Shown here: one piece after another, positions 2,976-63,521 of the stretch
Position numbering within the stretch: the first letter of the stretch is position 1
How the letters are laid out: every line of letters starts with the position of its first letter
Virus record (IMG/VR): IMGVR_UViG_3300045738_000438
Span: 3,432 to 67,431 of that record
Strand: one strand, 5' to 3'
Source: a virus
Length of the DNA: 64,000 nucleotides
Program-made: the position numbers and the translations under genes
Notes under the pieces: model-generated
Database searches by the model: none
The model's input: the letters and a program-made list of their open reading frames with translations, nothing else
Told to the model about the DNA's origin: nothing

Positions 2976-4448
2976 TTAAAGCGGGACGGCGGTTAAGCTC
3001 ATTCTTCCGGCAGTCGGATCGCTGAAAAACTCAAGGTCGGCGGACATTTCTCCGATTAGCGCATAGCTGAGGCTGTCGAAGCTATGTTTATTGTCATCGC
3101 TAATGACATATTGCCCCACTGACTTTCCCTTCCTTAGGTACCTGAACATTTCAACCGTCTTGATACAGTGTGCAGATATGTGAAGCCGGTTTTGCATGAG
3201 AAGGTCTTTCAGGAGTTTGACTCTTTGCCTGACTGAACCTGAAAACTTGGGCGCACCGATGAGGTTTATCTTCCCGTTGCTGGCAGCAGCCACAACCCTA
3301 TGATCATAGGTGTTAGCCGAAGCCCTGTACCTCACCATTGACGAAGTGTCAGACCAGTGAGTCCACCTTATCTCCTTGCCCAAGTGTTCCTCAAGTCGTT
3401 CTATTCTGTCCATTGCTTCCCCGGTGAAATCCTCCAAGGATACGTCAGCATGGAGTACCACAAGCTCGTCCAACACTGTCCATCTGGTGCCTTGGACGGT
3501 GTTCACTTTTTCTAGGATGTGAAAAGCGTGGTTTCTGTCCCCCAAGTCCCAGCCACCTATAAGCTCAGTGCAAGCGTTTGTGGGCAATATGACTTCCCAT
3601 TCGTCTTCAATGGGGCTGTCGATGTTCCCAACAACGTGGGTGTCAAACTTAAACACCTTTCCGAAGTGTGCGTTTGAAGATGAGGCTGTCCACTTCCCAA
3701 GCACATACCTATCATAAAGCTCCGGGTCAGGCCGAAACGTGGCAATCAAGTCCTTCTTGTCGTACTCGGACAAGTAGGGGTTGTCATCAACCATTGCTTC
3801 GATCAGGTCAAACTGGGCTATGTACTCCGGGTCGGGGTGGTCATCCTTCCCCGGCTCCTCATACCACATTTTATAAATCCAAGAGTTTGTTCCCTCTTCT
3901 GCTGGGTTTGTGTCCCCTATCCACTGGTGCTTTTGGTATGGCAGGCCGGGGAGCCGAAGCTGCCCCTTTGATATGGTGAAAACGCAGGAGTCTTTGAAGT
4001 TGGATAGCTCGGAAAAGAATATCAGGGAGAACCTAGTGCCCTTGATTTTCTCCTCAATGTCATGGTCTACGTCAAGTGAGTGCAGTTGGATTTCAGTTTC
4101 GTTGCCGTGCATGTTGGCAACCCTCATGTAGTGCATCTTGGTAACACCATCAACCTTTGGGGGGACGGTAACCTTGAAGCCATCAAGGCCCGCCTCCCAC
4201 TCAGGAAGGATTACATCAATGAGGTCAGACCAGACACCAGACTTGGCGTTCCTGATTGTCTTGCAAAATATTCCGACCCGTCCACTTCTGGTCTCCCAGC
4301 AATGGCGCATCAGCCGGTGGAGAACGCCGATGGTTTTGGAGGAATAGCGGGGGCCACTCACAAGAAGGTATCTTCCGGTGGAGTTGAAAATCTCCAGTTG
4401 TTTTGGGGATATGCTGGGATACCAGTACCCACTAGCGTCAAGAGGCAT
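2976..4448 (-). CDS. terL: terminase large subunit
   Basis: Walker A-like SGPRYSSKT, Walker B IFFSE, coupling DTNP, DNPYL, nuclease GGWDLG and C-terminal HSFDSLSY. Confidence 0.9.
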   Translation of the reverse strand: MPLDASGYWYPSISPKQLEIFNSTGRYLLVSGPRYSSKTIGVLHRLMRHCWETRSGRVGIFCKTIRNAKSGVWSDLIDVILPEWEAGLDGFKVTVPPKVDGVTKMHYMRVANMHGNETEIQLHSLDVDHDIEEKIKGTRFSLIFFSELSNFKDSCVFTISKGQLRLPGLPYQKHQWIGDTNPAEEGTNSWIYKMWYEEPGKDDHPDPEYIAQFDLIEAMVDDNPYLSEYDKKDLIATFRPDPELYDRYVLGKWTASSSNAHFGKVFKFDTHVVGNIDSPIEDEWEVILPTNACTELIGGWDLGDRNHAFHILEKVNTVQGTRWTVLDELVVLHADVSLEDFTGEAMDRIERLEEHLGKEIRWTHWSDTSSMVRYRASANTYDHRVVAAASNGKINLIGAPKFSGSVRQRVKLLKDLLMQNRLHISAHCIKTVEMFRYLRKGKSVGQYVISDDNKHSFDSLSYALIGEMSADLEFFSDPTAGRMSLTAVPL

Positions 4449-32400: not shown

Positions 32401-35400
32401 GACAGGGCCGTTGGGAAAGACTCAACAATTATTAAGAACACCCAAGACGGGGGGACTAAGTGGACTGGTAAGTACATTCAGGGGGCCAGTGAGTTCACTG
32501 ACGTGTATGTGGTGTATGAGCCAGAGCAGATTAAGTCATCAGAGATCATTACCTTCAGCCTTGATCCGGTAACAAAGGTGCCGGTCTTTGTCCCCCCGTC
32601 AAAGCGGTTCAACGTAATGAACGCCAACGTGGCGCACTCGTTCCGCTACCGCAAGGGCCGAGCGATTGGCAGCCCAAAGAGGCCCGTGATGAGCAAGGCC
32701 ATGAACTTCTTCGGCCAACCAAGTGGGCCGTTTGAGGTGGATGTGAACTGGCTAACCAAATCTGAAGTGCAGAATCTGAAGAGGCTGCTAAAGAAAGCCG
32801 TAGCCAGCGGAGAAGGTGGCAGGTACTGGTACGAGCGCAGCAGTGACATGATCCTGAAGTTAACCGGGGGCAACGTCACCGAGGCTGAGAGGGTGGTGCA
32901 ACTCATTGCCATCTTCTCTCCGCAAAACAGGGTGCAGCCCAACTTGGACGCCGCCCTTAAGGCTTACATGCGGTGGCGCAGTGGCATGACAAGGGCCGCG
33001 TTTGTCCACCCTGATCACAACATGAAGATGGGGCGGGACATGGAGAACGCCGCTGACCTTCTTTATGACGGCAAGGAATGGGCTGGCCGCAAGACAAACA
33101 ATTTCTATAACAACCTGATGATCCTCATTGATCCCACGCGCACGCAGGGGGCAACCGTGGACATGTGGATAGCGCGTATGTTTGGGTACAAGACAGACAG
33201 CCCGTCTGACGCGCAGTACACATTCATGGAGGAAATGATGGGGCAGATTTCCACCAACATCGGATGGACTATACATCAGGTTCAGGCAGGCATGTGGGTC
33301 TATGCACAGGGCTTGTGGGTCTCCATGAAGGGAGAAATTAACAAGGCCGCTGAAGAAGCCGGGATAAAGAAGGACAAAGAGACAGGCAAGTACAACCTAT
33401 CCGACCCTGAGTACGACAGGCTATACAGGAAGATGTTCCATGAGCGCGTGAAGAAGGACTTACGCATGAAGAAGGACTCAGCCGGGAAGTACACCGTCAC
33501 CGAGGAAGACCTGCTTGATTTCTCACACGCCACTGCCCGCAGGGTGATCAGCTTCAGCAACGAGTTCATCCCCGGAAACTCAACCGGGATACTTAGCGGG
33601 ATGATCCATGCGCCAGACGCTATTAAGGTTGAGTATACAGCCAACATGCTCCAAGCATTCTATGATCGGAAGACCAAGAGAAGCATCATAGGGGAGGAGC
33701 TTGGGTGGTCAACCATCACTGGTATGGACGAAGTATATACGGGATCAAGTACATACATTAACAAGGATGGTGAGACCGAGTCCAATCCCTCAACCGTTGT
33801 CCAAGGCTACGGCGGTTCAGCCAAGGGCGGTGAAGGCTCAGGAAAGCTTGAGCGTGATGCTGACCTGTCTCCGCTTTCCGAGAGCATGTATACCGAGGAG
33901 TTAATACTCCAAAGCCTATACGCAAGGCAGGAGATGGGTGCTGGGTACAGGGCAATGGATGGCGGGACAGCGTCCCAAAATAAAGGGGCAACCATTGACG
34001 TAGGCAAGCCACTGAACGCGCAGGAGACAAGGAGTTTGGTCTGGGCTACTGCGGATTTGGTTAAAGATGTGGGGGGGCAAGCTTGGGCGGTGTCCTTCTA
34101 CCCGAATCCTAATGGCATCACTATGGTTAACCTCTCTGCTGAGGCGTCAATGATTCCGAACGAGGAATTCAAAGCCTTTGTTAAGAAGGCCATAACCAAA
34201 GCAACACAGGTGCAACACGTAGGCAGGCCCGCTCTTAAAAAGAAAGACTTGCCTAAACCACCCAAGTTTAATATCAAAGTCTTTACAGCGGACACTGTAT
34301 TTGTAGAAAACAACTGGAAAGAAGACACAAATGGCGAAGGATACATCAGACGATCAATTACCGCACGGACATCCGATATACTCGCAAGGCTGGACGAGCG
34401 CATCGGCGTTCGGATCGACGCGGTTTACAGAAAGTGGGAACGAAGAGGGTATGGAAACGCCCCCACAAATCCCACCAAGTTCTCAACAGGAATCACTGAC
34501 ATCTCAGCAAGAGATGACTGGGACAGAATCCTCCGTGCTGGAGCGGAGTCTAACCTCGGAGGACGTGATGCTTCTCGTTCAGAAACAACCGTCAGAGTTA
34601 ACCAGCGAGGAGGCTTTAACCTTGTTGACTCAGTCGGTGACAAGCCTGCCACATCCCGTGACGCAGTACGAAGCGCGTCTGACGGAGACGGACGCAGCGC
34701 GGCTGGCTTCTTCTCTAATGTAACTAACGGGGCAGACGCTTCTCACATCCCAAAGCGGACAGAATACCGCCTCCTTATCCAACTGGAAGAGGGGGCGTTG
34801 TCTTTCAAGCAGGAGCGTGACAAGCACAGGGGCAACTTTGATAACCACATAGCGTCCAGCATCCCCGGCTTTGACGATCTTCAGTCTGCCGTGGGGTGGG
34901 CTATCACACAAACCTACGGTCAAGACACCGCCGACATGCTTGATGTGGGTGCGTCAGAAGGTGCGCTCAACAAGGCAATCACAGCGATGAGCCGGGGCAG
35001 GATCAGGACGGTAGCCCTTGATCCCAACCCAAGCATGGCCTTAAACTATGATAGTATAAGCAAGGTGGATGGGGCTGAGTATGCCTTGGCCGCTTGGTCA
35101 AGCAAAGAAGACGAAGGGTCTGAGTTGTGGGTGGACGAGGAGGCAGGCGCACCTATATTAGGCTACAAGCCAGACAGGCAGTTTGATGTTGTGCATGAAG
35201 CAATGACGTTCCAGTTCATTGACAACAAGCGGCCAGCCCACATTGCCCGGATGAAGGAACACTTAAAGGAGGGCGGCATAGTCATCCTTGAGGAGAAGGT
35301 TGGTGACAGGGCTGCACAGTATAGGCTTAACGAAGACCTTAAAGATGATTACAAGCGGTACTACTTCAGCGAGGATCAGATTCAAACCAAAGCCAAGGAG

Positions 35401-38400
35401 GTTTTAGCCGGGGATGAAGATGAAATTGAGGGGATGACGGAGAAGCAAGTCTCCAAGGATGAGCTTGAGTTGGCCCTGAATGAGAACTTCCAGAACGTGG
35501 TGATGATTTGGGACAGCGGAAACTTCAAAGGCTACGTTGCTTCTGACGATGCAGGCCAGTTGCAAAGGTTCCTCTCCAACCTACAGCCTACTGACACGCA
35601 GTTCAGTAACACGGTGACACCAAACGTGGTTGCGTCACCAGACACAGACCTGATTCAGTTTGCGTCCGCACGTGCAGAGACAGCACCTGACTTTACACCT
35701 GAGGGCTGGCGATCATCCGACTCTGAGGCGGGGTTCCTGTCCCAAGAACATTCACCGGGGATGCAGGAAATAATAGACAGGAGCTATGATGTGTCCAACC
35801 CGGACGAGTTCTACGCCAAGGGATTAGTGAGCAGGTCAAACGAAGGTCTGTTCAGGCGCGGCCTCAACATAGCACTCAACATACTGGACGGGATCAGGGA
35901 GGCACACGGAAACGTGGAGGCGGGGGAGAGAAGGGAGAAGCGTAAATTTTTTGAAGCGGTAGAGGACATGTTGAAGACCGGGGAAGGGTTGGACATGAAC
36001 CGATCCGCAAGCTTTAGTGGGTTGCTAATACGAGAAGGGATAGAGGCAGGCAGCCTTAACATAATTAAATCTCCAAAGCGGGTGGCTGCTGCACGTGATC
36101 TATTGCTGGAGCAAGGCAGGGCTGGCCGAGCCGAGAAGCTTGGGCAGCAGGCACGGGCAGGGACGAGTCTCATCAGGGATATAATTAAGCGTTACTTGCC
36201 GAAAGATGTGAGCAAGACGGCTTACAACATACTTGGGCTGCACCGTGCCGATGAGATGTGGGAGGTGGTTAAGAATATTCCGGGGCCAAAGGAATACACA
36301 AACCTAAGAGCCAAGTTCTTGGCCGACGACCACCCTGATCTGGCGGCATCTTTGGCTGACACCAGCTACAAGTTCCTGAAGATGGTGGAAGGCAAGATGG
36401 AGAGCATCATCGCATCCTACAGGAAGCAAGCTGACAAGATGTCCGGGGAAAAGTTTCAGAAGCTTGCTGATAAAATCCAGTTGAGCCTTGCCAAGAAGAA
36501 CCTGACGCAAGCTGCGGCGGCTGACATAGCCAAGCAACTCAATGCAGCCATCAACGCCATCAGTAGCGTGGCCCCATCTGCTAGGACAACCAATGTCCTA
36601 CTAGAAATAGCTGGGAGCGAAGAACAACTAAAAGCTTTGCAGTCCAAGAACGAGATTATCCTTGGCCGCGTTGGCCAGATTGCCAGCATCTTAAGCCAAA
36701 GCCCACAGGGCCAAAGGCTGCTCATACCAAACACCCATGCCACGGCGGCAGACGTTAAGCAATTGGCTAGGGAGATGTGGGGCGTCTTCAGGTACCAGAA
36801 GACGTTGATGAGCAGGCCGCCGAACATTGCTGGCCTGACGCCCCTGCCTTCCAAGCCCGTGTTTGATCCAGTCGGAGTTAACCTGAATATATGGGAGATG
36901 GCGGCGGGTATGTTGGCTGTCAACCACAGCCTGAAGGAGAATGCACTGGCGGTTGTGTTTGCTTCCGACCCAGACATGGAGCTTGCAAGCGTTAAGGACT
37001 TTGCCACTAAGCTGGGCAAGGACATGCAGCATAAAGACCCGCTTCAAAGGGCAGCGGCCCTGCAACGTGCGCTGAAGAAGGTCACTCGGTTCACAGAAAA
37101 AGCCGAACGTCAGCGTCTTATATTTCAGAAATACTATGAGAGCATAACGAAAGAGTTCAAGAACCTGAGAGACTTGTATCAGGCCGCACAGGTGGCGAGG
37201 CAATACCTGTTAGACCCAGACCTGAAGGAATTAAAACTGAAACTAGTCAACGATTCTAAGGCCGTTGAGGCACCCGGATTTGCTGACGAGGCTTGGTACG
37301 ACAAATTTGAAAATGGTGTTCTCCATGTCCCTGTCCCGTCCATACGTGAGGAGGGCAAGGGCAGCGTGGTAAAGGTAAGGGTTCTTTCCGACGAAGGGGG
37401 CACCAAGGAACTAAGCACCCTGATGTCAGTCATAGACACGCTTCAGAGTTGGCTCCAGAATAACTTTGATTCCGAGAAGAACGAGCCGACCTCTCCCTAC
37501 TTTGGCTTCTATTGGAACTGGTACCACCAGCTTACGACCACCTACGTGTCCGAGTTGGTGATGAACCCCAAGCAGAACGAGAGGCTGTTGTTTAACCGCA
37601 CGTTCTTTGCAATTCCAGAGCGGTGGATTGACAACTTCCCAACCCGCTCCGCAGAGATCGCCAAGCGGAGGATGCAGAGGTTCTCTACCTACTTCAACCT
37701 GATGGGGGACTGGTCGGCAAAACACGCAGCCCCTTGGAAGGTGAGCATCACCAAGGCTGCAAAGAGCCATGACATTGCACATGACACGGTGCAGGAGATG
37801 CTAAACGAGTGGAACCTAAGGGTCGGTAACGCCCTGAAATACTCCCACCAAGAAGGCGGGGTTGAGTTTGGTGTGGGGAACGAGCTTCCCAGTGGAGAAG
37901 TTGTTACCAAGGAGGACATGGCCCTGCTTGAGTACGAGTCACGCATCACGGCTGAAGCTTTCAACATCAACGAGGAGATCAGCGGGATTGACGAGTCCTT
38001 TTTGCCGACAACAATTAAGGAGCAGATTGGCAAGAAGAAGTACCAGCGCATGGCGTTGGCTAAGGGCAAGAACTTCCTGCCGCGTGTTTTCAGCAGTGAG
38101 GGAAGGCAACTGGTCAGGGACTACAAGGAGTTAACTAGGGAGAGAGAAGAGGCAACCGTAGAATTGTTTGACGATCTGATTGGGGTGAGGCGTGATGTCT
38201 TGATAAGCTTCATCAACGACAGGAACCCAGAGTTCATAGCTCAGGCACCGTCCAGTCTTGAAACAGTTTATAACGATGTGGCTGCCGAGGTGAGGGAAAA
38301 CAAAACCCCACCGGAGGTTGAAGCCATCGTTGAAAGAATTGCCGAGCTAGGCAGCAAGTCCAAGAACGCGGTCAAGGTGCAGATACTGGAGGAGTTGGCA

Positions 38401-40953
38401 CCGATGATGAACCGTCTAGCTGAGTTCGTAGTCAGTGAAGATGACACCGACCCCGCTCTGACAATCAGCAGCTACCGGAAGGATTCACCATTCAGTAAGG
38501 CGCGTAAGGATGCTTTAGCTCCGTACTACTTTTACCAGCATGGATTCAAGTCAACCTTAGACATGAGGCGTTTTGCCATGCTTGGCTTCAGCCAACCGTT
38601 TGAGCAGTTGGTCTCTGCCATTAAGTCCATGTCAACAGAACTGGATACCCTTAAGACTAGGCTGCTTGGACAGGAGAGGGCGATCATGAGGGAAGCCAAG
38701 TTCCGTGGCATGGACTTGGATAGCATTGAAATCCAGCGTGAGCTAGGGAAGCGGATCAAGCTGGCCGTCAAGGATGGTCGTTCGTTCATCCCGGTGCGAG
38801 ACCAGATAGACATCCTGAAACAGGAAGCCGACATATATGTGGACAGGTTCATTAATGCTTTTGACCCAGCCTCAGTTGGCCAACGTGAAGACATGTTGCC
38901 TGCTTGGTGGCAGCGTAGCTGGGGCATAGCTGTTGGCGGAACACTTCAAAGCTTTGGGGTTCTGCTGAAGAACAAGTTGGACTCCACAATCTATGGTGGA
39001 TTGCAGCTTGGTTACCTGACAGGGCAGACTGGAGCCACAGCCTTCATGTCTGCATTGCTGTATCACATGCCGATAGTGGCCGGGAAAATGATGGGCAGCG
39101 CAGCCAAGTCTACCGGAGTTGCGCTTGGTAAGACTTTCACAAAAGGATTCCACAACGCGCTGCGAGGAACGAAGAACGCACGGGGGTTGGATAAACTTCT
39201 TGCGCCTATCCGTGGCTTCCTGTCCCCCGCCGCTGAGGAGTATTCCATGAACATGCCGTTGCGGATTAAGGAGTACCAGATGTTGAGCAAGCGTGGGCTT
39301 GGCATGCCAGTGACACCTGAGGCGACGATGGAATCAATGGAAGGGGACTTGGTCACAGGTGGCCGTGGTGTTGGAGCGTACAAGAACGATAACGCAATAA
39401 TCCAGTATGGAGTGAGGGGGATGATGGCTCTGGTCGGAGAAGGGGAAGCAGTGCTTGCCTTGACTGGACGCCCGTTCTTCCCGCGCATAGGTGACATTGC
39501 AGGTAACACCATCATCAGCAGGTTGGCCTACCAGTTTGTTAACCGGCTGGACAGCAGGTTGCGCCACGTTTACATGCGGCGACAGGACAGGGGCACCGCC
39601 GACATCATAACGGACATCAGCCCGGAAGAGTTACTTGGCCGATACCTTGGTGTGTTCAAGGCCAACCGCGCCAGTTACAACGAACTGTTAAACACTCTTG
39701 GCCGAGCCGGGGTTACGAACTTCCAAGCAGAGGCTCAGAACTTCTTGGCCAAGCTTGCCGCCGGGGAAACTGATGCACAGTTTCTTACCGACAAGCAGAG
39801 AGATCAGGTGGCGTCCATATTCGTTACCATGAGCAACGCTGCCACGCCGACCAACCGTTCGTTGGTTGCCAAGACCAGCGCGGCATGGAACGTGGCGTTG
39901 TCCCTCATGGGCTGGGGCTTGAACATGTTCCAAGTCTTTGGCGAGAAGACATTCCTGTTCAGCAGGAGCAGGCAGGGGGCAGCGCATGAGAAAGCAATGC
40001 AAAGCTTTGCATCGTTGGTGTTCTTGGTGGCGGCGATGGCAGCTACCGTACCTGAAGCTGAACTGGTTGGTTGGCTGGTTCGCCTATGGAAGAAGCACAT
40101 CCTTGGCAAGGAGGACACACGCACACTGATGCAGGATGTTGTTGGCTTGGACAAGAAAATCAAGGTGGCCATAAGCCTGTCGCCTAGCACCATACCGCTG
40201 ATGGGCGCAGGCATTGAAGCCTACCTGAACAACACACCGGGGCGTGGCCTCCATCATCCGGGCAGCTTGGCTATTGGCAAGGTGTCGGACTTGGCCGCTT
40301 ACGGCATTGGCGTGGCAGCTACAGGAGACTGGACATACCGGGGCGCGGAGACATTGCATAGCATCACTCCGATGACACAAGCTTTCACGCGCTTCACCGA
40401 CCAGCAGAAAGGGAAGAACATTTCGTTGGCTGCCAGCCGACTAATCAGGAAATACTATGGCGATCAGGATCAGATTGATCCTCCTTATTTTAAGAACAAG
40501 CTGGAGAAAGCCTTGGGTTTAAGTGAACTGAATCCACTCAAGGACAGGTTCAGTTCAGAGGTGGCGCGGGGTGACGCACGTGAGGCCGCAGCCACATTTG
40601 CCGAGATGGTTCGCACCGCAAAGGAGATTGGAAAGGAAGACCCAATAGGCTCGGTCAAGGCAAGCTTGAGGGGAAGGAATCCTGTGAGCTACACACTGAG
40701 GTCGAAGCCAACAAAGACTGAGTTCTTCAGGCAGCTAAAGGATATGCCGACCACAGAAAGGCTCAGGCTGGTTGAGATACTGAACCGCTACCAGTCAGTC
40801 TGGTCAGCGTTGGGCCTTGGGCCTTTGTTTAAGGAGGACAAGAAGGGGCTAGACATAAGCTTGCCCCGGATACCGAAGGGAAGGATGACCCCTTCAAGGT
40901 TTATCGGAGGAGGCAGGACGAGGCCGTTCAAGCCCAGCCCCCGGCTGCCGTGA
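26452..40953 (+). CDS. giant polyvalent ejection protein (4833 aa)
   Basis: Uninterrupted 14.5-kb ORF; Gly/Ala hydrophobic N-terminus; GrpE-like, zincin-like, ART-PolyVal-like, glycosylase-like and CmoA-like segments. Confidence 0.85.
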   Translation: MPITTGGIDYDFGIEDLDSLFSDFNANPDLVSLWDERRRQIEEREGFEDAPISSWLGGMHTGIMATPESINLQSQQIDELWDAWFGDDEAQKQSRLDRQEAQAEYDAVTKAEYESMANPDAAASGGWWGGVLAEELPFLIGSMGVGTLAKAGAKGLFKVAGKSLAKETAGKIGSRTALGTTAGIHGLRSGGGMFAEAVEMTAQRKLPALREANPDLTDEQVIDLAYADSQGEARGPATAAGALTAGLVTLFGFTGPQSWFLRGNKAGGDAVGNTIGQYLGSMVRHSGFEATEEGLDALGQGLIAKGTYDPERTWGQIGTHILDGVMAGAVMGGAYRGAFSAPTFAQNLYDKTKYNKDKVIADFIDIVTEANPKISKEEARKKATDAYESVLNEAVEGGAVVTKSEDVAEEGRGLPLLPEEDVASLEQQVIDATELHKAVVEKFGPESPEAKAALEDLNLLAKKKTDEGVKPSDIPGYPETADPEGELVHESKAKADGAGKSAKTWKTGDGVWRNIVRNADGSVFRDETIRVVYLRDEDGVTWKHVYRFKDGKVVSHELGVLPGEEAKQPREWKAPAGSHSAPVAGTESGFNRSRDEDGNLVEATSPEEDAMNYFNNEGEIITEEEALAAATPEAEAEGLWPRYEKGSRNNIEQAGDDLGKRASVAHGVRKSEKFTESTQEFQDYVNGVIQEAEDAGYTIEDATGKKYVEGMTVEADFTPATEEDEAIRLEDGEHRVIKRVIRPALFKDGKQQGGSLLPQYKVVVFGPKGEVKADPEGVTEAETEEEAEAERLEQENLRAKGNDYMADLPPKERAKLREKIRKEYGIPTEEEFQETVNKNFKEELERQAADGDQTAIDLLEALARKDASEAAPAAAPTETTEYVLSVSRRKGTKGKEKVAVDEVEGRPATTEVELGFTLGATVKHPAVLKWNAKRRTWGVGYYAGKDAKGKPKFNESFSLKDDSLVRTSKDGGKVIGAIIPRGITTSDFISKSLSEKDGTWVATDSRTSKKINLITMDETPQDEVVQAIVDNIKVVGLRKILAKAQASGVVTLESIRSLINEAEKGKSKQDKNLERVYSGSIEDAPKLAKALVSAISFFSEPKYYRDLIQREYQGKISRDEEAEIRKQAAALKSRGDKEIRAYAITRLLTNASEISDRMRRDRKTADDTLGYTPVDVDSDTADLRPRENWADELTKLEEEQEGTVDSGETVKTDTRPRSQLIDDLANSIEKSKRGSQMLESIDFDNPTAKDIETAQELASAVAPDNPALVLGILPDVQRRLFSAAGRLGVTKLKSGKAFPDAKGPVQISKIVNDPFNGMTDKQRGRAQALLRRMVPAVLNNLTLRVRTGVTDSTIGGEGIYFEGSFNSLLNLAEVVTGEDTSPDVVAEEIAHFTAKVLPAKYRRDAIRLQRAALGRRIKEVEAELDNEESAERLKILKALLGTLDEIKRRGGEVNSREYATIANYFAVSEGVEVDETGRTPQERVQDMFVQDRALYYDSITASVGTEAMDADYNKALLGDNGNDNLKELVSGMSETLELGKLHEEYKKAKISLRGVSRGRPEAETDEIITASYAIWRAIKKWEERNPYSTAKIRKMIEGAAELGGYTTKGWHGSTHFLEDNKYKSEYLGDATGAASAKEGFFFSKDKFTAESYGNVIASKESFDGLRVDDKFLMEQILKLNEAMKKERGTFLFKGETVYDADNLMAEGTVDLDHPDARTDLEIELADREKFQGESGVNQNEKSYSYNHPGLFPGQKAKNDKRAEEEGGVGPYVYRRDIYKLEGSPDTLGFAPRGNPKRWLGSGRGIKDKILEAQDFILDYIVSDILEYGHGVFHGKDFDDLSFYISSGSLTEFWDKDTQNTLSPEAVESIQNAERNIDRWVETDIDIGPADVWAAAGSKQEGVQAKGLSKEFKRVAVQVLKSLRSNKAAMLQRDNPDLDPEFSSTIDRYTSQLHEVYLRMVDPGTHDDKEMGYREETYLNRIAFDRAVGKDSTIIKNTQDGGTKWTGKYIQGASEFTDVYVVYEPEQIKSSEIITFSLDPVTKVPVFVPPSKRFNVMNANVAHSFRYRKGRAIGSPKRPVMSKAMNFFGQPSGPFEVDVNWLTKSEVQNLKRLLKKAVASGEGGRYWYERSSDMILKLTGGNVTEAERVVQLIAIFSPQNRVQPNLDAALKAYMRWRSGMTRAAFVHPDHNMKMGRDMENAADLLYDGKEWAGRKTNNFYNNLMILIDPTRTQGATVDMWIARMFGYKTDSPSDAQYTFMEEMMGQISTNIGWTIHQVQAGMWVYAQGLWVSMKGEINKAAEEAGIKKDKETGKYNLSDPEYDRLYRKMFHERVKKDLRMKKDSAGKYTVTEEDLLDFSHATARRVISFSNEFIPGNSTGILSGMIHAPDAIKVEYTANMLQAFYDRKTKRSIIGEELGWSTITGMDEVYTGSSTYINKDGETESNPSTVVQGYGGSAKGGEGSGKLERDADLSPLSESMYTEELILQSLYARQEMGAGYRAMDGGTASQNKGATIDVGKPLNAQETRSLVWATADLVKDVGGQAWAVSFYPNPNGITMVNLSAEASMIPNEEFKAFVKKAITKATQVQHVGRPALKKKDLPKPPKFNIKVFTADTVFVENNWKEDTNGEGYIRRSITARTSDILARLDERIGVRIDAVYRKWERRGYGNAPTNPTKFSTGITDISARDDWDRILRAGAESNLGGRDASRSETTVRVNQRGGFNLVDSVGDKPATSRDAVRSASDGDGRSAAGFFSNVTNGADASHIPKRTEYRLLIQLEEGALSFKQERDKHRGNFDNHIASSIPGFDDLQSAVGWAITQTYGQDTADMLDVGASEGALNKAITAMSRGRIRTVALDPNPSMALNYDSISKVDGAEYALAAWSSKEDEGSELWVDEEAGAPILGYKPDRQFDVVHEAMTFQFIDNKRPAHIARMKEHLKEGGIVILEEKVGDRAAQYRLNEDLKDDYKRYYFSEDQIQTKAKEVLAGDEDEIEGMTEKQVSKDELELALNENFQNVVMIWDSGNFKGYVASDDAGQLQRFLSNLQPTDTQFSNTVTPNVVASPDTDLIQFASARAETAPDFTPEGWRSSDSEAGFLSQEHSPGMQEIIDRSYDVSNPDEFYAKGLVSRSNEGLFRRGLNIALNILDGIREAHGNVEAGERREKRKFFEAVEDMLKTGEGLDMNRSASFSGLLIREGIEAGSLNIIKSPKRVAAARDLLLEQGRAGRAEKLGQQARAGTSLIRDIIKRYLPKDVSKTAYNILGLHRADEMWEVVKNIPGPKEYTNLRAKFLADDHPDLAASLADTSYKFLKMVEGKMESIIASYRKQADKMSGEKFQKLADKIQLSLAKKNLTQAAAADIAKQLNAAINAISSVAPSARTTNVLLEIAGSEEQLKALQSKNEIILGRVGQIASILSQSPQGQRLLIPNTHATAADVKQLAREMWGVFRYQKTLMSRPPNIAGLTPLPSKPVFDPVGVNLNIWEMAAGMLAVNHSLKENALAVVFASDPDMELASVKDFATKLGKDMQHKDPLQRAAALQRALKKVTRFTEKAERQRLIFQKYYESITKEFKNLRDLYQAAQVARQYLLDPDLKELKLKLVNDSKAVEAPGFADEAWYDKFENGVLHVPVPSIREEGKGSVVKVRVLSDEGGTKELSTLMSVIDTLQSWLQNNFDSEKNEPTSPYFGFYWNWYHQLTTTYVSELVMNPKQNERLLFNRTFFAIPERWIDNFPTRSAEIAKRRMQRFSTYFNLMGDWSAKHAAPWKVSITKAAKSHDIAHDTVQEMLNEWNLRVGNALKYSHQEGGVEFGVGNELPSGEVVTKEDMALLEYESRITAEAFNINEEISGIDESFLPTTIKEQIGKKKYQRMALAKGKNFLPRVFSSEGRQLVRDYKELTREREEATVELFDDLIGVRRDVLISFINDRNPEFIAQAPSSLETVYNDVAAEVRENKTPPEVEAIVERIAELGSKSKNAVKVQILEELAPMMNRLAEFVVSEDDTDPALTISSYRKDSPFSKARKDALAPYYFYQHGFKSTLDMRRFAMLGFSQPFEQLVSAIKSMSTELDTLKTRLLGQERAIMREAKFRGMDLDSIEIQRELGKRIKLAVKDGRSFIPVRDQIDILKQEADIYVDRFINAFDPASVGQREDMLPAWWQRSWGIAVGGTLQSFGVLLKNKLDSTIYGGLQLGYLTGQTGATAFMSALLYHMPIVAGKMMGSAAKSTGVALGKTFTKGFHNALRGTKNARGLDKLLAPIRGFLSPAAEEYSMNMPLRIKEYQMLSKRGLGMPVTPEATMESMEGDLVTGGRGVGAYKNDNAIIQYGVRGMMALVGEGEAVLALTGRPFFPRIGDIAGNTIISRLAYQFVNRLDSRLRHVYMRRQDRGTADIITDISPEELLGRYLGVFKANRASYNELLNTLGRAGVTNFQAEAQNFLAKLAAGETDAQFLTDKQRDQVASIFVTMSNAATPTNRSLVAKTSAAWNVALSLMGWGLNMFQVFGEKTFLFSRSRQGAAHEKAMQSFASLVFLVAAMAATVPEAELVGWLVRLWKKHILGKEDTRTLMQDVVGLDKKIKVAISLSPSTIPLMGAGIEAYLNNTPGRGLHHPGSLAIGKVSDLAAYGIGVAATGDWTYRGAETLHSITPMTQAFTRFTDQQKGKNISLAASRLIRKYYGDQDQIDPPYFKNKLEKALGLSELNPLKDRFSSEVARGDAREAAATFAEMVRTAKEIGKEDPIGSVKASLRGRNPVSYTLRSKPTKTEFFRQLKDMPTTERLRLVEILNRYQSVWSALGLGPLFKEDKKGLDISLPRIPKGRMTPSRFIGGGRTRPFKPSPRLP
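30931..30949. repeat. 19-bp palindrome copy 5 (intragenic, perfect)
   Basis: TTATACTATGATAGTATAA inside the giant gene. Confidence 0.9.
35041..35059. repeat. 19-bp palindrome copy 6 (intragenic)
   Basis: TTAAACTATGATAGTATAA inside the CmoA-like coding segment. Confidence 0.9.
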
Positions 40954-41148
40954 CAGCTTGTGGAAGGCTTTGCGTATCCAGTATCCACGCATGAAGGCGA
41001 CAGCCGCAAGCACCAGTGACATGCCAGCGTTCTCGTACATGCGTATGCCGTAGCCGAGCCAGTGGAGTAGTCCATAAACCAACAGAAGGTTGATCACGTA
41101 ACCTACCACCACGTTGGTCAGGCTTTCTGCGGCGTGGAGTTTACTCAT
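40894..41148 (-). CDS. small two-TM membrane protein
   Basis: ESLTNVVVGYVIN...RGYWIRKAF; overlaps the recombinase stop codon. Confidence 0.65.
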   Translation of the reverse strand: MSKLHAAESLTNVVVGYVINLLLVYGLLHWLGYGIRMYENAGMSLVLAAVAFMRGYWIRKAFHKLSRQPGAGLERPRPASSDKP

Positions 41149-42014
41149 ACCTCAATACTTGAACCATCGAACGCCTTGGCAATGTCCACCTCGTCACGGT
41201 CAATATACCTTTGCAGCATGCGGGGTGAATCCCATCCAATGATTGCGGTGATGGTTGTCACCCTCACCCCTGACTCCAGCATGCGTGTAGCTGCACCGTG
41301 ACGAAGGCAGTGGTAGGTGAACTTATCGTTAAGCCCCGCTGCCCGGACGATGTCCTTGAACTCAGTGGACAAGGTGCCCCGGCTGGCATACCTGCGCTTG
41401 GCTGACGGGAAGAACGAGCCGCCCTCGTCAGGCACCTTCTTCAGTGCGGCCTCCACGTCAGGCACCAACGGTAAGACGATCTCCTTCTTCTTGCGCTTAC
41501 GAGGAATGAACCTGATCTGCTTGGCCTTCCAGTCAACAAACCCCCGCTCAAACTGAGCGGTGTCACCGAGTCGCATCCCGTAATGCCACCCAAGTAATAT
41601 CATAGGCGTCCAGTAGTGGCTGTTCCTATGCGAGCGGCTTGCCGATAACAAATCCTTGGCGTCTTGTTGCTTGAAGCCAACGATATCAGCCGCCTCCTCA
41701 GGGAACCTTGGGATGAGGGCAGTTGGGTTCCTGTTCATAAGCTCCCTGTCCACCCAGAACTGGAAGAAGGACTTCAAGATGGCCAAGGTGTGGTTGAGGG
41801 TTATGCCTTTGACCCCTCTCTTTTTTGAGAGGAGCATAAAGGAGTGGACTGCATCTGGTTTTAACGGATTCAGGTTCTCCTTGAAGCAGTGTGAGGCATA
41901 GCTATCAAGCTTCCATTGATAGCAGTTGATCGTTGATTCACTGGCGGCGAGCATCTTCCACGTAATATACTCAACCACCATTTCCGGTAGGTTCATGGTT
42001 TTTTTTCTAGGCAT
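41145..42014 (-). CDS. int: tyrosine recombinase/integrase
   Basis: GMRLGD (R), HCLRH (HxxR), IGW, RY catalytic Tyr; N-terminal SAM-like core-binding domain. Confidence 0.92.
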   Translation of the reverse strand: MPRKKTMNLPEMVVEYITWKMLAASESTINCYQWKLDSYASHCFKENLNPLKPDAVHSFMLLSKKRGVKGITLNHTLAILKSFFQFWVDRELMNRNPTALIPRFPEEAADIVGFKQQDAKDLLSASRSHRNSHYWTPMILLGWHYGMRLGDTAQFERGFVDWKAKQIRFIPRKRKKKEIVLPLVPDVEAALKKVPDEGGSFFPSAKRRYASRGTLSTEFKDIVRAAGLNDKFTYHCLRHGAATRMLESGVRVTTITAIIGWDSPRMLQRYIDRDEVDIAKAFDGSSIEV

Positions 42015-57188: not shown

Positions 57189-57941
57189 CTAGGCATTGAC
57201 TGCCGCCGCCTCACCCTCTTCAGGAAGGATCGTCGGCACCTCACCCGTCTTAGGGTCAGGCGTGGAGGCACCGTCAACCACTTGCTTGAAGTGGTTGTAT
57301 GCCGCCAGTGCCAGAGACTTGGCGACTTCCAAGTCCTGCCCAGAGATGTTCAGGATGTAGGCAAACACCTTATCCTTTTTCTGAGCCTTGGCCCCAGAAG
57401 TCACTTCCTTGGGGGCATCCTTGCCTGCCTTCTTAGCCTCGGCAGCCTTGGCAGTCTTGCCCTTGCGAGCGAAGATACCCAGCGACTGGTAAAGCTTGGT
57501 GATGGCATTGATTGCCGTTGACTCAGCGTAGCCTGCATCAATGCAAGCCTGCTTGATCACCGAGCGGGGCACGCCTGCTTTGTTGGCATCCTTGACCAAC
57601 TCCTTGACCCCGGCCTGCTTCTCGTCACGCTTGGTCTCGGCCCCGCGCAACTCAGAGAACTGAGCAGTGAGAGAAACCTTGAATTTCTCATTCACCTTGT
57701 CCTGCTTGGCGGCCTCGGCAGCCTTGACCTTGAGAGCCTTGACCTTGAGAGCCTTGGCCCACTCGGCAGCGTCCGCTTGTGCCGTCAACTCGGCAGCAGA
57801 TTTCTCCACCTTCGGAGCCTTCTTGGCAGCCTTCTTGGTAACCTTCTTAGCCGTTACCTTTGCCTTCGTTGTGCCCTTACCAGCAGCGGCGTCAATAGCC
57901 TTGCTGATACCTCTACCGGGGGTAGCTTTTTTAGCTGCCAT
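57189..57941 (-). CDS. Lys/Ala-rich protein with histone H1-like N-terminus
   Basis: MAAKKATPG...KVTAKKVTKKAAKKAPK; 15-bp tandem repeat at 57721-57750. Confidence 0.7.
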   Translation of the reverse strand: MAAKKATPGRGISKAIDAAAGKGTTKAKVTAKKVTKKAAKKAPKVEKSAAELTAQADAAEWAKALKVKALKVKAAEAAKQDKVNEKFKVSLTAQFSELRGAETKRDEKQAGVKELVKDANKAGVPRSVIKQACIDAGYAESTAINAITKLYQSLGIFARKGKTAKAAEAKKAGKDAPKEVTSGAKAQKKDKVFAYILNISGQDLEVAKSLALAAYNHFKQVVDGASTPDPKTGEVPTILPEEGEAAAVNA

Positions 57942-58199
57942 AATATTTACAAGTAGTAGGAGTCCTCTGCATTTAATCACGGGGTTGGAACCGTCACGGG
58001 ACACTCAGAAATGAGTGCCTCGGCCTGCATTGCTCCGCGCAGTGTTGAAGCATTTCCTTGAACGGCGTAGCCACTGCGAGGGGTAGTAGTTAGGGGATAT
58101 CCAAGGCGATTAACCCTTGGGAGGTAGGATGGAGGAAGTTCCTCCCATCAACACTCCCGCCGGGAGTGCTGAAGGGAACGGGGGCAGTGCCCCCTGATG

Positions 58200-58748
58200 T
58201 TAAGCAATCACTGAGATTGCCGACTTGCTCAGGTCACGTCCTGCCTTCTTGTTGCAGGTCTCCTGCCAGTCAGGGAGCGGCGTGGCGATGCCGTTCTTGC
58301 GAACCGAGACCTTGCCGGTTGGGGCATCGTACTTGACCTTCAACCCCGCTGCCTCAGCGCACTCACGGGTAACTACACAATCAGGATTGCGCCTGACCTT
58401 CTCGGCCCATACCTGCTTGCGGAAGTCCCGCAATTGCTCCAGTTCCTTCTGATCGGCAGCGTGCTGATCCCAGTCGAAGTCCCTCTCACAAAAGGTCAAC
58501 CTCAGACCAGCAGAGAACAAAGCAATGTCGGCCTGCCACTGAACACTGTCAGTGTCGGTCTGACTCCTGCCGTTCTCATCCACGTAATGGGGGCATCCGC
58601 AAAACCGGAAGAACTCCCGCGTGACCTCGTCCTGATCTTCAGCACCGCAACCCTTTGCGACTTTGTCCAGAACCTTGACCGGAAGATCGTTCAACCGGAG
58701 CGTCCCCAAGAAACCTTGGGCTATCTTTTTACCTGTAATCTTTTTCAT
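58200..58748 (-). CDS. hypothetical early protein (first gene of leftward unit)
   Basis: MKKITGKK start after CAACTACTAC leader and long hairpin. Confidence 0.65.
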   Translation of the reverse strand: MKKITGKKIAQGFLGTLRLNDLPVKVLDKVAKGCGAEDQDEVTREFFRFCGCPHYVDENGRSQTDTDSVQWQADIALFSAGLRLTFCERDFDWDQHAADQKELEQLRDFRKQVWAEKVRRNPDCVVTRECAEAAGLKVKYDAPTGKVSVRKNGIATPLPDWQETCNKKAGRDLSKSAISVIA

Positions 58749-58778
58749 TTGAGTAGTAGTTGTGGGAGACCGAAGTGT

Positions 58779-59390
58779 CTCACCTGAGAACCCCCAGAAA
58801 CACTGGAGGCTCTCAGGCGAGCGGGACGTGCAGTCCCGCCACAACCTGTACCAGTCACGCGGGGATCAGTCTGATGAGAGAAGATTGTATGATTCGTAAG
58901 AACCCGCGCACTGGAATTGGCCGATCCTGAGCTTGTCCGCTGAGGTCTGGGAGCGTGAAGATATCCTGCACTTCACTAGGTTGTCGAACATCAGTGTACG
59001 TTCCGACCATTTCCCTTCGCCTGAGCTTCAGCTTCATTGTATCTACCGGGGGTTACATCCGGTTGAAGCTTCGCCAGTAAGGCAACTCAATTCCCACACA
59101 ACTTAAACCCTTGTGAGGCGACTGGCGATTATGTCCAGTACTGTCGTGGCAGCCAGTTTGAGTGGCGGCGGGCAGGTGGATTGTCGGTGATGATTGGTCA
59201 GACCCGATCCAACTGGTTTCTCAGAACCCGTCCCTGAATCTTCGGCTCAGGTGCGAGTGGATGTATTCAGTCCGCGTCCACTAGTGCGGTGCATTCCTGC
59301 ATTCAGCTTTTCTGGCACGCTGGAAAGTGCCTCCCGTAACTAAGACCGGGACTACGTCCACCTCAGCAAACATGCGGAATGAGTAAGTAT
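58779..59390. ncRNA. large structured non-coding RNA candidate
   Basis: About 600 nt with no convincing ORF and at least nine recognisable stems, including a long-range one. Confidence 0.5.
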
Positions 59391-59393
59391 TGC

Positions 59394-59412
59394 TAATACT
59401 ATGATAGTTTAG
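59394..59412. repeat. 19-bp palindrome copy 13
   Basis: TAATACTATGATAGTTTAG at the edge of the structured region. Confidence 0.85.
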
Positions 59413-59915
59413 AGGGGAGCTTGCTCGGCCTACCCATCGTTATCTATCCCACTCTGGGCAAAAAAGTGCCCAACGCTCAAACAGACGGGGAAAAAAACTG
59501 CCCCAAGTGCAATGTCTATTATGCATGTTACCCTTTGTTAGCAGTACCCAGCGGACGTGACCCCGTACCAAGCCCTCCAATCCGGGCTGAGGGCACCAAT
59601 CCCGGTGATTCCGCACAGGCACCCCACCACCGGGGTACCCAGCCCCAACGCTGTACCTATATATATGTGGGTATTCTAGTTTTCTTGGCTAAATCAGGAA
59701 ACCTAATGTCCTTTGGTTCGTTTGTCGGCCTGCGCTGGGCAGTGTATACTGCTTGGTTCTTATGGAACAGATGATAGAGAACCTAATGTTGGCCCTTAAA
59801 GAGGTGGAAGCGGAGCATCCCGGTAGCAAGTCACAAAGAATTTTAAAAAGAGCGGTTGACCAAGCCGTTAGTCTGCGGAGCAAGTGGAAGACTAACTGGA
59901 ATTTGCAGAACTGAC

Positions 59916-59952
59916 AAAAAACCCCGGACACCACACACGTGGGCCGGGGTTA
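59916..59952 (-). terminator. rho-independent terminator
   Basis: AACCCCGG...CCGGGGTT followed by T run on - strand. Confidence 0.7.
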
Positions 59953-60113
59953 AGCAGCGGGTGTTGCCCAGCTAAATCACTCTAAACACCCATAGACTTT
60001 AAGGCAGCCTTTCTTACTGCCGAGTTAGTTTATTTGTAGTTCCTTTACTGACCGCTGCTATGATTTTCACTAAGCCACTGAGCCTCTATAAACTCACTTC
60101 TTGTCATTTGTGT

Positions 60114-60482
60114 TCACTCCTCTTCCCAGCCATATCCGTTCCACCTCATCTCACTATGCCCACACCAGTTGCGGTGCATTGGCTTGGGGTAAAGTTTGTG
60201 GCAGTAGGTGTATTTCCTTATGTCTACTTTTGGTTCCGCTCCACAAAGGGAAAGCTTCTCTTCCCGGCTCATGGGGAGCCACATCCCTTGCCAAACGGTT
60301 CCTTTTGACCCGTCCTTTGGTGGGAGAAGGTCACGCCTTTTTCTCAACTCGGCTTCCTTGACTTTACGTGCTGCTTCAGCCCGTTTCTTGTGGGCCTTGA
60401 CCGTGGCTGAGTCTTCCCTCCTTGGAGGCCACATATCAAACGTAAAAGACGTTATTGTTTGTACTGCCTTAACTGTCCTCAT
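60114..60482 (-). CDS. hypothetical basic protein
   Basis: ORF from MRTVKAV. Confidence 0.5.
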   Translation of the reverse strand: MRTVKAVQTITSFTFDMWPPRREDSATVKAHKKRAEAARKVKEAELRKRRDLLPPKDGSKGTVWQGMWLPMSREEKLSLCGAEPKVDIRKYTYCHKLYPKPMHRNWCGHSEMRWNGYGWEEE

Positions 60483-60657
60483 TTTTACCAACTTTATGCA
60501 TGGGGCAGGTATCTGCCAGATAGTAGATAGGTTTACCGTCTTCTCCGGGCCAGCCCCTTCCGTTGCGGTTGTCAGGCACGGGGCATGTACACCCACGTGC
60601 TGTAGCAGCAAGGCTGCCGGGGGCCATTAGTTCACTTGGGGACTTCTCCTTGCTCAT
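60469..60657 (-). CDS. small Cys/His phage protein
   Basis: PGS..A..RGCTCPVPDN..GRG...CPMH. Confidence 0.65.
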   Translation of the reverse strand: MSKEKSPSELMAPGSLAATARGCTCPVPDNRNGRGWPGEDGKPIYYLADTCPMHKVGKNEDS

Positions 60658-60949
60658 TATTGAGGTATGATTTGGCAAAGACCATGAAGTCTTTGACTTC
60701 CTTTTCCTTATGCCTGCTGGCTTTCATCATAGAGTTCACCCTCTTGACGCTGTTGTACACCACGGTGCGATCCCTGTTCCAGAACCTTGCAATGATAGGC
60801 TTCTTGTAGCCTGCGTCACAGGCAATCCACTGGCAGACGTGCCTTGGCCAAGCATAAACCTGCTCCCGGCTTTGGCTTGTTAACCCTTCCAAGGGAACAT
60901 TAAAGTACAGGGACGCAGCTTCTGCAAGCTGCCTTTGTTTTGATTTCAC
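60632..60949 (-). CDS. DnaA C-terminal-like (TrpR-like HTH) DNA-binding protein
   Basis: YFNVPLEGLTSQSR...PRHVCQW...IARFWNRDRTVVYNSVKRV. Confidence 0.8.
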   Translation of the reverse strand: MKSKQRQLAEAASLYFNVPLEGLTSQSREQVYAWPRHVCQWIACDAGYKKPIIARFWNRDRTVVYNSVKRVNSMMKASRHKEKEVKDFMVFAKSYLNNEQGEVPK

Positions 60950-61299
60950 TTCTTTCGTCTTCTGACCTTCTTCTTGGGGGCAGGGGCGTCTTTCAGCAGG
61001 GAAGACCACCACCGCATGGCATCAGGGTTCTCCTTCCAGACGGCGCAGAGACCGTTTGCTAGTCGGTTGGTGAGGTTCTCCTCGTCACCGGATTCAATGC
61101 CCATACTGTAGTTGACGGAGTGGATTACCTCATGGAGGAAAGTGTTTGCGAGCGCGTCCTTGGGTTGGCCCTCGGTTACATATATGTGGAGGTTAGCAAA
61201 GTCACACCACCCCAGCTTGTCCCCGCCAGAGTCATCACGGTGTACGTAGAGAATGTCGTATGTGAAGCCTAGAACCTTAAGCTTAGTGGGCTTTGCCAT
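60946..61299 (-). CDS. small HExxH zinc metallopeptidase-like protein
   Basis: LGWCDF...NTFLHEVIH...EE. Confidence 0.75.
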   Translation of the reverse strand: MAKPTKLKVLGFTYDILYVHRDDSGGDKLGWCDFANLHIYVTEGQPKDALANTFLHEVIHSVNYSMGIESGDEENLTNRLANGLCAVWKENPDAMRWWSSLLKDAPAPKKKVRRRKK

Positions 61300-61544
61300 T
61301 AGTTCCTCTCCGGGTTCTTTAGCCAAGGGAGCATATGGTTCCTGCCAAACAGTTCCCGGTGTAAATCCATTAGGCAGGTCAGCCTCCCCAAGAGAAAACA
61401 ACTGAACGGGCTTAGTATTTCCGTTATTAATTCAAGGTTGTTTTGGCTGATCTCAACATCAAACAGCCCATTGTCCTCAAACTCCTTTGTGAGGACGTGC
61501 TGTATTTGGTTTATCGTTAGTTCAAGCGCATCCTTGTCGGTTAT
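61299..61544 (-). CDS. hypothetical protein
   Basis: Fills gap; GTG start overlapping the upstream stop assumed. Confidence 0.45.
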   Translation of the reverse strand: MTDKDALELTINQIQHVLTKEFEDNGLFDVEISQNNLELITEILSPFSCFLLGRLTCLMDLHRELFGRNHMLPWLKNPERN

Positions 61545-62765: not shown

Positions 62766-63299
62766 TTAGAAGACGGGTTCCTCAACGCCGCCTCCTATGG
62801 GGCTACCACTCAGTAGTCCCAAATTGCCAACCAACTTGAGGCCAGCCTTAGTAACGCCGTCCTTGTTCTCGTAAGTACGAGACTGAGCTTCCCCGGTGGC
62901 GTAGACCAAGGTGCCTTCCTTCAGTTCAGGGGCCAGTGCCTGTGGCCTGTCCCCAAATGCTAATACATCCCAGTAAGTGGAGAACACGGTTCCGTCACCT
63001 TTTGGGCTGGGTTTCTCCGTCACAACAGTAGCTGTAACGAACTTCGTTCCTGTCTTGGCAGACTCCCGTATAACGGCATCTCTGACCAAGGTTCCTACAA
63101 TAGCGCAGTTATTCATTTTGTCGAATGGTATGTATGTTTCGGTACTTTTTATCAAATACGCCCGTACCTTACTTAAGGCGTGAATTTCTATTTGCCGCAC
63201 GCGCTGGCGGGTAATCCCCATGATTTCCGCTACCTGCGAATGTGACTTCAGCGTGTTTTCAAATAGCACTTGCTTGTCGGATGTTCCGTAATGCTCCAT
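62766..63299 (-). CDS. ssb: single-stranded DNA-binding protein with in-frame N-terminal sigma70-r4-like HTH
   Basis: MNNCAIVGTLVRD OB-fold start at 63116, YWDVLAFG, acidic EEPVF tip; upstream in frame SHSQVAEIMGITRQRVRQIE. Confidence 0.75.
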   Translation of the reverse strand: MEHYGTSDKQVLFENTLKSHSQVAEIMGITRQRVRQIEIHALSKVRAYLIKSTETYIPFDKMNNCAIVGTLVRDAVIRESAKTGTKFVTATVVTEKPSPKGDGTVFSTYWDVLAFGDRPQALAPELKEGTLVYATGEAQSRTYENKDGVTKAGLKLVGNLGLLSGSPIGGGVEEPVF

Positions 63300-63521
63300 C
63301 AGGGCCAACCTGAACTTGGGCTTAAACAAACACGTCAAACAAATTAGTATCGGCTCCTCCAATCTGGAGAAGTGGAAAGAATTGCAACCTTCACATATGT
63401 AAATGGTTCCGCCTCCTGCCCCTGACTGTATCAAGTATTGGCACACTTTGGCAATCAAATTATTAAAGCGGCGCAAAAAAAACCAGAATTATTTATGATA
63501 TGTTGAAAAATAATACACGCC

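Follow-up and report, generated by a model that had tools for sequence, protein, structure and literature searches.

A 645-nt non-coding unit beside an orphan gene in a viral genome: a candidate structured leader or large non-coding RNA

The window analysed here is a stretch of 64,000 nt, bases 3432–67431 of a 67,431-base IMG/VR virus record (IMGVR_UViG_3300045738_000438). The sequencing runs that carry the non-coding stretch described below, X1–X19 from at least 19 studies, are seawater or marine metagenomes; X10–X19 contain less than 0.2 of the sampled words. The genes are arranged in two large blocks (Table 1) and, from the domain match of its integrase, the phage was read as temperate. The protein encoded at 62766–63476 (−) holds a sigma-70 region 4 HTH together with an SSB domain, an unusual fusion, and 26452–40953 (+) encodes a 4833-aa polyvalent protein with DUF7178 and a weak ART-PolyVal match under the Pfam cut-off. 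Prepilin-type N-terminal segments (FTLIELLVV...) were seen in relatives of the phage (L035 5950–6210, L036 4746–5018, L039 3155–4144 and L040 6241–7134). Segments of this type are common in Planctomycetota and Verrucomicrobiota, and are a possible hint at the host group.

Within the minus-strand block, the operon upstream of the non-coding stretch appears to end in an intrinsic terminator, read from the sequence, which a consensus terminator scan missed because its loop is longer than the scan permits. Next to it lies a small gene that is divergent from the early operon. Its 50-aa product is helical and without a family match, and possibly serves as a small control-region regulator; tblastn matches at 48–60% identity were obtained in the sister phages L034, L045 and L038, giving an alignment with 17 invariant columns. 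These three sister phages, found through TerL and the 60946–61401 protein family, share both this gene and the control region with the window. The control region, running from the terminator to the palindrome described below (59603–59984), has 63–75% DNA identity in L034, L038 and L045, and a core of ∼80 nt (especially 59620–59702) is ∼70% conserved in four more relatives that are without the non-coding unit. A small hairpin whose loop is a run of A/T (GGGGAAAAAAACTGCCCC type) is present in three copies, within 59451–59506 and 8847–8870, two of them just upstream of the palindrome and the third far off inside the structural region. Further upstream, the mechanically called 165-aa ORF 60114–60611 is actually two genes, 60469–60678 (−) and 60114–60470 (−). 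One of the pair encodes a Cys-rich protein of ∼62–69 aa, for which tblastn or an ORF listing gave homologues in G002/L037, L034, L035, L038, L040, L041 and L045, and the other is lineage-specific; 60116–60490 is missing from a near-identical variant in run X4.

The 645 nt from the palindrome to the next gene, orf182 (58749–59393), are non-coding. The codon-usage score is positive in no frame from ∼58750 to 59750, and the ORFs between 58748 and ∼59750 are all of 60 aa or fewer, which bears out the initial annotation in seeing no convincing ORF here. A single metagenome scan for the stretch recovered only one relative, L003, and the indels that separate the two sequences (28, 7, 6, 2, 1 and 1 nt) shift every reading frame. 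A hidden protein gene was thus ruled out by the codon scores and the frame-breaking indels. A 30-aa ORF (59281–59373), starting 20 nt past the palindrome, was rejected since its ATG is gone in L003, and descent by decay from the ∼200-aa gene in the same position of G002, L035 and L041 was rejected because tblastn found no remnant at E values up to 10. There are no tRNA or tmRNA genes in the 64-kb window, no tandem repeats in 58600–60100 and no iterons in the stretch, where GC content is 0.51–0.56 and not AT-rich.

No DNA relative of the stretch was found among GenBank phages by blastn, no homologue in GTDB genomes, and none in IMG/VR via three exact patterns or the flanking proteins; the relatives found through TerL and the 60946–61401 family are likewise without the stretch sequence. 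In the comparison with L003, 565 of 597 aligned positions are identical (94.6%), with blocks of at least 95 identical nt lying beside orf182. For orf182 itself the figure is 457 of 552 (82.8%; the query, 58200–58751, includes one extra codon), third codon positions differing at 45 of 184 (24%), and for the upstream spacer it is 277 of 345 (80%).

The palindrome that bounds the stretch, noted in the initial annotation, is real. The copy at 59394–59412 belongs to a family of oriented 19-nt palindromes, TTAAACTATSATAGTATAA, with 12 sites in the window within 3 mismatches and none expected (100 shuffles); weaker copies lie near 50746 and 62681. Three copies form an in-frame part of long ORFs, the 4833-aa gene containing two of them. 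Other copies stand 0–45 nt upstream of start codons, often after a GC-rich hairpin, and the copy at 59394–59412 agrees with the oriented consensus only when read on the minus strand, so it is taken as a gene-start signal directed into the stretch. We regard the palindrome as a putative phage-specific promoter/operator or punctuation signal. Since the terminator would end the upstream operon, the non-coding unit needs a start signal of its own. Another palindrome variant, ATACTGTGACAGTAT, has the same role in L034, L038 and L045, as if the signal were co-evolving with a phage-encoded dimeric DNA-binding protein, and the SSB/sigma-region-4 protein is a candidate reader.

Table 1. Features of the window around the non-coding unit, with the corresponding gap in a second lineage; the parts of the unit are listed 5′ to 3′ on the minus strand
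Feature	Position	Strand	Remarks
Plus-strand gene block	1–40953	+	
Terminase	2976–4448	−	Within the 1–40953 block
Minus-strand gene block	41145–64000	−	Integrase, DnaB helicase, exonuclease, ATPase, SSB/sigma region 4 protein
Integrase	41145–42014	−	Domain match
Palindrome copies	2590, 8127, 16796, 24593, 30931, 35041	+	
Palindrome copies	42017, 46904, 54659, 56126, 57119, 59394	−	
DnaA_C-type HTH protein	60632–61012		Near the non-coding unit
Putative intrinsic terminator of the upstream operon	59916–59949	−	CCCCGG...CCGGGG stem, then six U
Small divergent gene	59762–59914	+	50 aa plus stop; tblastn, alignment
Putative gene-start palindrome	59394–59412	−	CTAAACTATCATAGTATTA (minus-strand reading), 2 mismatches
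5′ conserved core	59230–59393	−	Hairpins UCCCG/CGGGA, GGCAC/GUGCC, AGUGGA/UCCACU, CCUGA/UCAGG
Long-range helix, 5′ arm	59360–59367	−	Within the 5′ core
Variable middle domain	59086–59229	−	Holds the 64-nt module 59153–59216, closed by CCAGUU/AACUGG
Central conserved domain	58916–59085	−	z = −1.61
Nested hairpin	59030–59070	−	AGCUUCA/UGAAGCU with ACCGG/CCGGU; central domain
Hairpin	58955–58976	−	GUGAAG/CUUCAC; central domain
Long-range helix, 3′ arm	58939–58946	−	Central domain
Cluster of four very stable hairpins	58766–58915	−	Just before the gene; z = −5.29
Hairpin of cluster	58851–58914	−	
Hairpin of cluster	58821–58839	−	
Hairpin of cluster	58783–58817	−	15–17 bp
Hairpin of cluster	58766–58781	−	Contains C(UUCG)G
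Start module	58749–58765	−	CCACAACUACUACUCA and one further base, adjoining the ATG of orf182
orf182	58200–58748	−	ATG 58748–58746
Gene with homologue after the sister-phage units	57189–58004		
Gene-free gap, second lineage	L020 (G001) 1000–1677; L042 5800–6524		

All eight sets of stems listed in the initial annotation are present at the coordinates given there, together with two further hairpins (58783–58817 and 58766–58781), and the helix set taken for testing comprised 13 helices and 89 pairs. The description of the region as densely paired stands for 58766–58915 only, and not across the whole 612 nt to which it had been applied. For the whole region, 20 shuffles gave z-scores of −2.16 on the plus strand and −2.83 on the minus strand, and 40 shuffles gave −1.68 (+) and −3.48 (−). 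In a noisy genome background (20 places, both strands, 8 shuffles each), 6 of 40 windows fell below −3.48, and the folding energy of the whole region is within the genome's own background. When 150-nt pieces were compared with 200 shuffles each, 58766–58915 was the sole exceptional piece, with z = −5.29 (−) and −4.62 (+) and no shuffle as good, whilst the remaining three gave +0.65 to −1.61 over both strands, the 5′ core reaching only −0.43. Thus, folding over ∼480 of the 612 nt is no better than that of shuffled sequence, which goes half-way towards the refutation set out in the initial annotation, and the gene-proximal 150 nt fold clearly better. These strongest hairpins resemble the ordinary intergenic punctuation found before other genes.

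The long-range 8-bp helix between 58939 and 59360, which had been proposed to close about 420 nt, appears in both the minus-strand MFE and centroid folds, but is not significant alone, because by our arithmetic a 612-nt sequence should by chance contain ∼3 perfect 8-bp complements. A bias of G·U pairs towards the minus strand, also noted at the outset, holds for hairpin 58783–58817, in which two G·U pairs on the minus strand are A·C mismatches on the plus strand. The stretch contains several inverted matches of 9–17 nt, and two short self-complementary motif families noticed post hoc are enriched, CTGAG/CTCAG with 8 occurrences (1.6 expected) and CCAGT/ACTGG also with 8 (2.0 expected). GGACU, also noticed post hoc, is raised over four units (12 against 2.3 expected); a CsrA-type sponge was rejected, as GGA is not enriched.

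None of the 89 tested pairs is gapped by an indel in L003. Of these pairs, 83 are invariant, four are changed on one side to or from G·U, one is changed on both sides (C-G to U-A) and one is broken, the broken helix re-registering in L003 as a 12-bp helix that is perfect but for one bulged A. Read on the minus strand, 5 of the 6 changed pairs still pair, and read on the plus strand, 3 do. In the gene-proximal cluster, one pair is changed on both sides and three on one side, all remaining paired on the minus strand; the 28-nt insertion of L003 falls exactly in the apical loop of hairpin 58783–58817 and the 2-nt deletion in the loop of 58766–58781. The stems of the central domain are invariant, a 6-nt deletion and one substitution falling in loops, and in the 5′ core 146 of 151 positions (59230–59380) are identical (96.7%). 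The 7-nt deletion and clustered substitutions lie in the variable middle. The 64-nt module there is paralogous to 58851–58914 (alignment z = 4.15, 0 of 300 shuffles), a score inflated by the choice of ends for likeness. The motif that the two modules share is lost from 59153–59216 in L003, where two changes in the closing helix give G·U pairs on the minus strand and mismatches on the plus strand. Covariation, one of the checks suggested initially, is not significant, the observed score being reached by 257 of 500 shuffles in a comparison of two sequences that has no power. In the minus-strand MFE fold (62% of positions paired), 14 of 33 substitutions fall in paired positions and 7 of 13 affected pairs break, and substitutions in stems are not clearly depleted.

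Four sequencing runs were compared with 57900–60700 (2801 nt). Run X4 contains an abundant, more distant relative in which orf182 is kept at ∼90% identity (47 other letters in 460 nt). Within the unit, pieces of this relative match at 80% or more only in 59195–59363 (18 other letters, no gaps) and in a 29-nt island, and therefore conservation of the unit does not in every case exceed that of orf182; overall unit length appears to be kept, since the record coordinates are colinear to within a few nt. In a variant from run X6, 201 nt between 59085 and 59287, including the module of the middle domain, are replaced by 102 other letters. The patchy identity and the block replacement indicate that the unit evolves as a mosaic, and the high identity to L003 could reflect recent recombination. 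Mapping to metatranscriptomes, another of the checks suggested, drew on the sole RNA run, X20, which was picked using words from the stretch itself. As a hint of expression, it gave two 151-nt contigs, 58927–59083 and 59111–59268; within the 2801 nt compared, the two fall in the unit and the flanking genes have none. The contigs have a depth of 2, are without strand information and could be DNA carry-over.

The gene beyond the unit, orf182, has no PHROG, Pfam or PADLOC match. From 5.8 billion proteins searched, 77 candidates yielded five proteins, one of them the window's own; an atlas search gave nothing usable, and the AlphaFold2 model (pLDDT 56) is too poor to use. The unit adjoins orf182 in the window and in L003, and contigs of X4 and X6 span the junction; on these sequences, unit and gene are inherited together. 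The junction has neither a palindrome nor a U-tract terminator. The start module consists of a short hairpin and then (C)ACAA(A)CUACUACUCA, 1–2 nt before the ATG and without a Shine-Dalgarno sequence, and is found before two different genes in the window's lineage: orf182 and, as the hairpin-plus-ACUACUACUCA module, a different gene in L003 (∼1625–1655). It is also present in a loose end of a relative in run X5.

In L034, L038 and L045, a gene-free unit of 541–649 nt lies between two ATACTGTGACAGTAT copies and is followed by a homologue of the window's 57189–58004 gene. No cross-homology between these units and that of the window was detected with models R1 and R2 or by sequence comparison; a by-eye likeness around CCAGC..AGAAA..CUGA is unproven. 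The sister units contain a hairpin with a 5-bp helix in which 4 of the 5 pairs show two-sided changes, with a second copy inside the L045 unit (E = 1.7e-4); UUCG loops and GNRA loops are found on the strand of this hairpin. Global MFE structures of L038 and L045 gave no conservation signal (32 pairs kept, 33 broken). The sublineage of G002/L037, L035 and L041 is without such a unit. With unrelated units in the same place, the slot is recurrent and its contents are lineage-specific. A second lineage, G001 and L042, has in the same slot a gene-free gap of 1.1–1.2 kb, ∼92% identical between the two, and its hairpins show paired changes, for example CUGGG/CCCAG to CUAGG/CCUAG.

We compared the unit with known RNA systems. 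Rfam 15 gave no match at gathering score in the whole window and none for the stretch at E values up to 5, the best values (1.8–4.7) being chance matches to miRNA and lncRNA models; L003, L034, L038, L045, L042 and L044 were also without a match. A known RNA family is thus ruled out, and membership of the GOLLD/ROOL kind, which the initial annotation had brought into play, is not upheld by any Rfam family. GOLLD and ROOL are described as phage-borne, non-coding, multi-hairpin RNAs of 500–800 nt and of unknown function (bioRxiv 10.1101/2024.12.08.627333). The unit is similarly large (645 nt, above 500), gene-free and located in a virus record with terminase, DnaB and integrase. GOLLD and ROOL are often near tRNA islands, a typical and not obligatory setting, whereas the window is without tRNA genes. 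They also have elaborate, covariation-backed structures, whereas the folding energy of the unit is unexceptional over most of its length and 83 of its 89 tested pairs are invariant across two sequences. A further trait of GOLLD and ROOL is a homo-oligomeric cage built of RNA only. A second comparison is with the Vibrio phage ICP1, for which an abundant ncRNA of ∼800 nt from a 1-kb ORF-less gap is described (PMC7567579). The likeness, drawn by description and not by sequence, lies in the large ORF-less gap, the phage without tRNAs and the long RNA of unknown role, as that account gives them (PMC7567579). The ICP1 transcript was measured by RNA-seq, whereas the window unit has two depth-2 contigs of one metatranscriptome.

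Smaller regulatory RNAs offer further parallels. The principle of leader-derived immunity RNAs (P4 CI, P1/P7 c4 and N15 CB) is cited in the ICP1 account (PMC7567579). As in the P4 CI and P1 c4 systems, a temperate phage here has an untranslated stretch heading an early minus-strand operon, behind a putative start signal, and the short self-complementary motif families of the unit could pair alternatively. The immunity RNAs themselves are of 70–100 nt, within shorter leaders. No defined effector-target set of the P4 CI/P1 c4 type was found in the stretch; Rfam holds a c4 family, and no family of this type matched the stretch. Antisense targets elsewhere in the phage, other leaders included, were rejected, the best match being 15 nt with E = 0.03. 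The put element of HK022 is a cis-acting antitermination RNA of ∼70 nt, with two stem-loops, located after an early promoter. The unit is similarly placed, a putative early start signal lying directly before it and a long operon after it, but is ∼645 nt long. A type III toxin-antitoxin system (ToxIN-like) was rejected, as there are no tandem direct repeats, only two dispersed 64-nt paralogous modules, and orf182 downstream belongs to no known toxin family (Pfam, PHROG, PADLOC).

The reading first given, a large ncRNA or highly structured leader, is still the best, although GOLLD/ROOL membership, exceptional folding energy over the whole region and covariation between the two available sequences are not supported. 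It is favoured because the stretch is non-coding, is kept above the level of orf182 in L003, follows a palindrome, holds the RNA contigs and has gene-free counterparts in sister phages. We tentatively propose that 58749–59393 is a minus-strand structured leader or ncRNA inherited with orf182, a proposal that we consider slightly more apt to fail than to hold. We infer the transcription of the unit, its 5′ and 3′ ends, its action in cis and any binding partner as follows. Transcription of the upstream operon would stop at the terminator (59916–59949), and the palindrome would signal a new start on the minus strand. The RNA would then run through a conserved body of hairpin modules (∼480 nt, 59393–58916) and end in the four stable hairpins (58915–58766) and the start module directly before orf182. 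It would thus be a long structured leader co-transcribed with orf182, possibly cut free as a stable RNA. The 3′ hairpin cluster may gate or stabilise the expression of orf182, and the conserved body may act as RNA, by binding protein or by switching among CUGAG/CUCAG and CCAGU/ACUGG pairings.

In the sister phages, a simple leader is opposed by the second palindrome, which there separates the unit from the next gene. The same arrangement, in which the L034, L038 and L045 units are bracketed by two palindromes as protein genes are, is what would be expected if the unit were instead a stand-alone gene for a large trans-acting ncRNA (of the GOLLD, ROOL or ICP1 kind), extending from the palindrome to the hairpin cluster and independent of orf182. 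The left hairpin cluster resembles the hairpins that close other genes, the X20 contigs lie only inside the unit, and the ∼800-nt ICP1 RNA provides a precedent (PMC7567579). In the window, however, neither a second palindrome nor a U-tract terminator precedes orf182, the unit and orf182 travel together, there is no Rfam match and the folding is unexceptional. We consider an independent ncRNA gene unlikely.

The unit may alternatively be a functionless, recombining mosaic spacer, its left end being ordinary punctuation and the identity to L003 the result of recent exchange. Such a spacer would account for better-than-chance folding confined to 58766–58915, for the block-wise replacement and patchy identity in the X4 and X6 relatives, for the slot being filled by unrelated sequence in sister phages and by none in G002/L037, L035 and L041, and for models R1 and R2 being without cross-homology and covariation not being significant. 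It fits poorly with 645 nt of kept spacer, which is unusual for a phage, with identical blocks of at least 95 nt beside a gene in which 24% of third codon positions differ, and with L003 indels that all avoid the tested stems. The X4 relative also appears, by colinearity, to keep the overall length, and CTGAG/CTCAG and CCAGT/ACTGG are locally enriched, as noticed post hoc. We judge a functionless spacer to be improbable as well. Least probable, and in our view very unlikely, is an element that acts as DNA, be it a replication origin or a platform for protein binding within the replication module, which would suit the position among replication genes (SSB/sigma region 4, the DnaA_C-type HTH and, further on, the DnaB helicase), the many inverted repeats and a high conservation that fits DNA function equally, but not the lack of iterons and tandem repeats at a GC content of 0.51–0.56, the one-sided changes that give G·U on the minus strand and mismatches in a symmetric DNA or plus-strand structure, the UUCG-type loops, which are an RNA feature, or the loss of the DnaA_C protein from L034, L038 and L045, whose slot still holds a unit.

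Thus, the minus-strand leader or ncRNA inherited with orf182 remains the preferred reading, and the data weakly suggest that the unit is a large phage ncRNA or leader outside every catalogued RNA family. Support is thinner than for families defined by deep alignments, and the unit is therefore presented as a candidate and not as a discovery. GOLLD, ROOL and the ICP1 RNA are abundant and without known function, and a further family would be useful if confirmed. In the present case, a defined start signal and a single orphan protein go with the unit, and a slot with unrelated occupants would allow comparison between them. A broader idea, which we find rather doubtful, is that of a fixed ‘RNA slot’ behind the early control region, filled in different lineages of this group of uncultured marine phages by unrelated, fast-swapping structured RNAs of 540–650 nt, where the occupant in the window's lineage would form a new RNA-protein pair with orf182. 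If this were true, the RNA and orf182 would constitute a module such as a host-takeover or anti-defence ribonucleoprotein.
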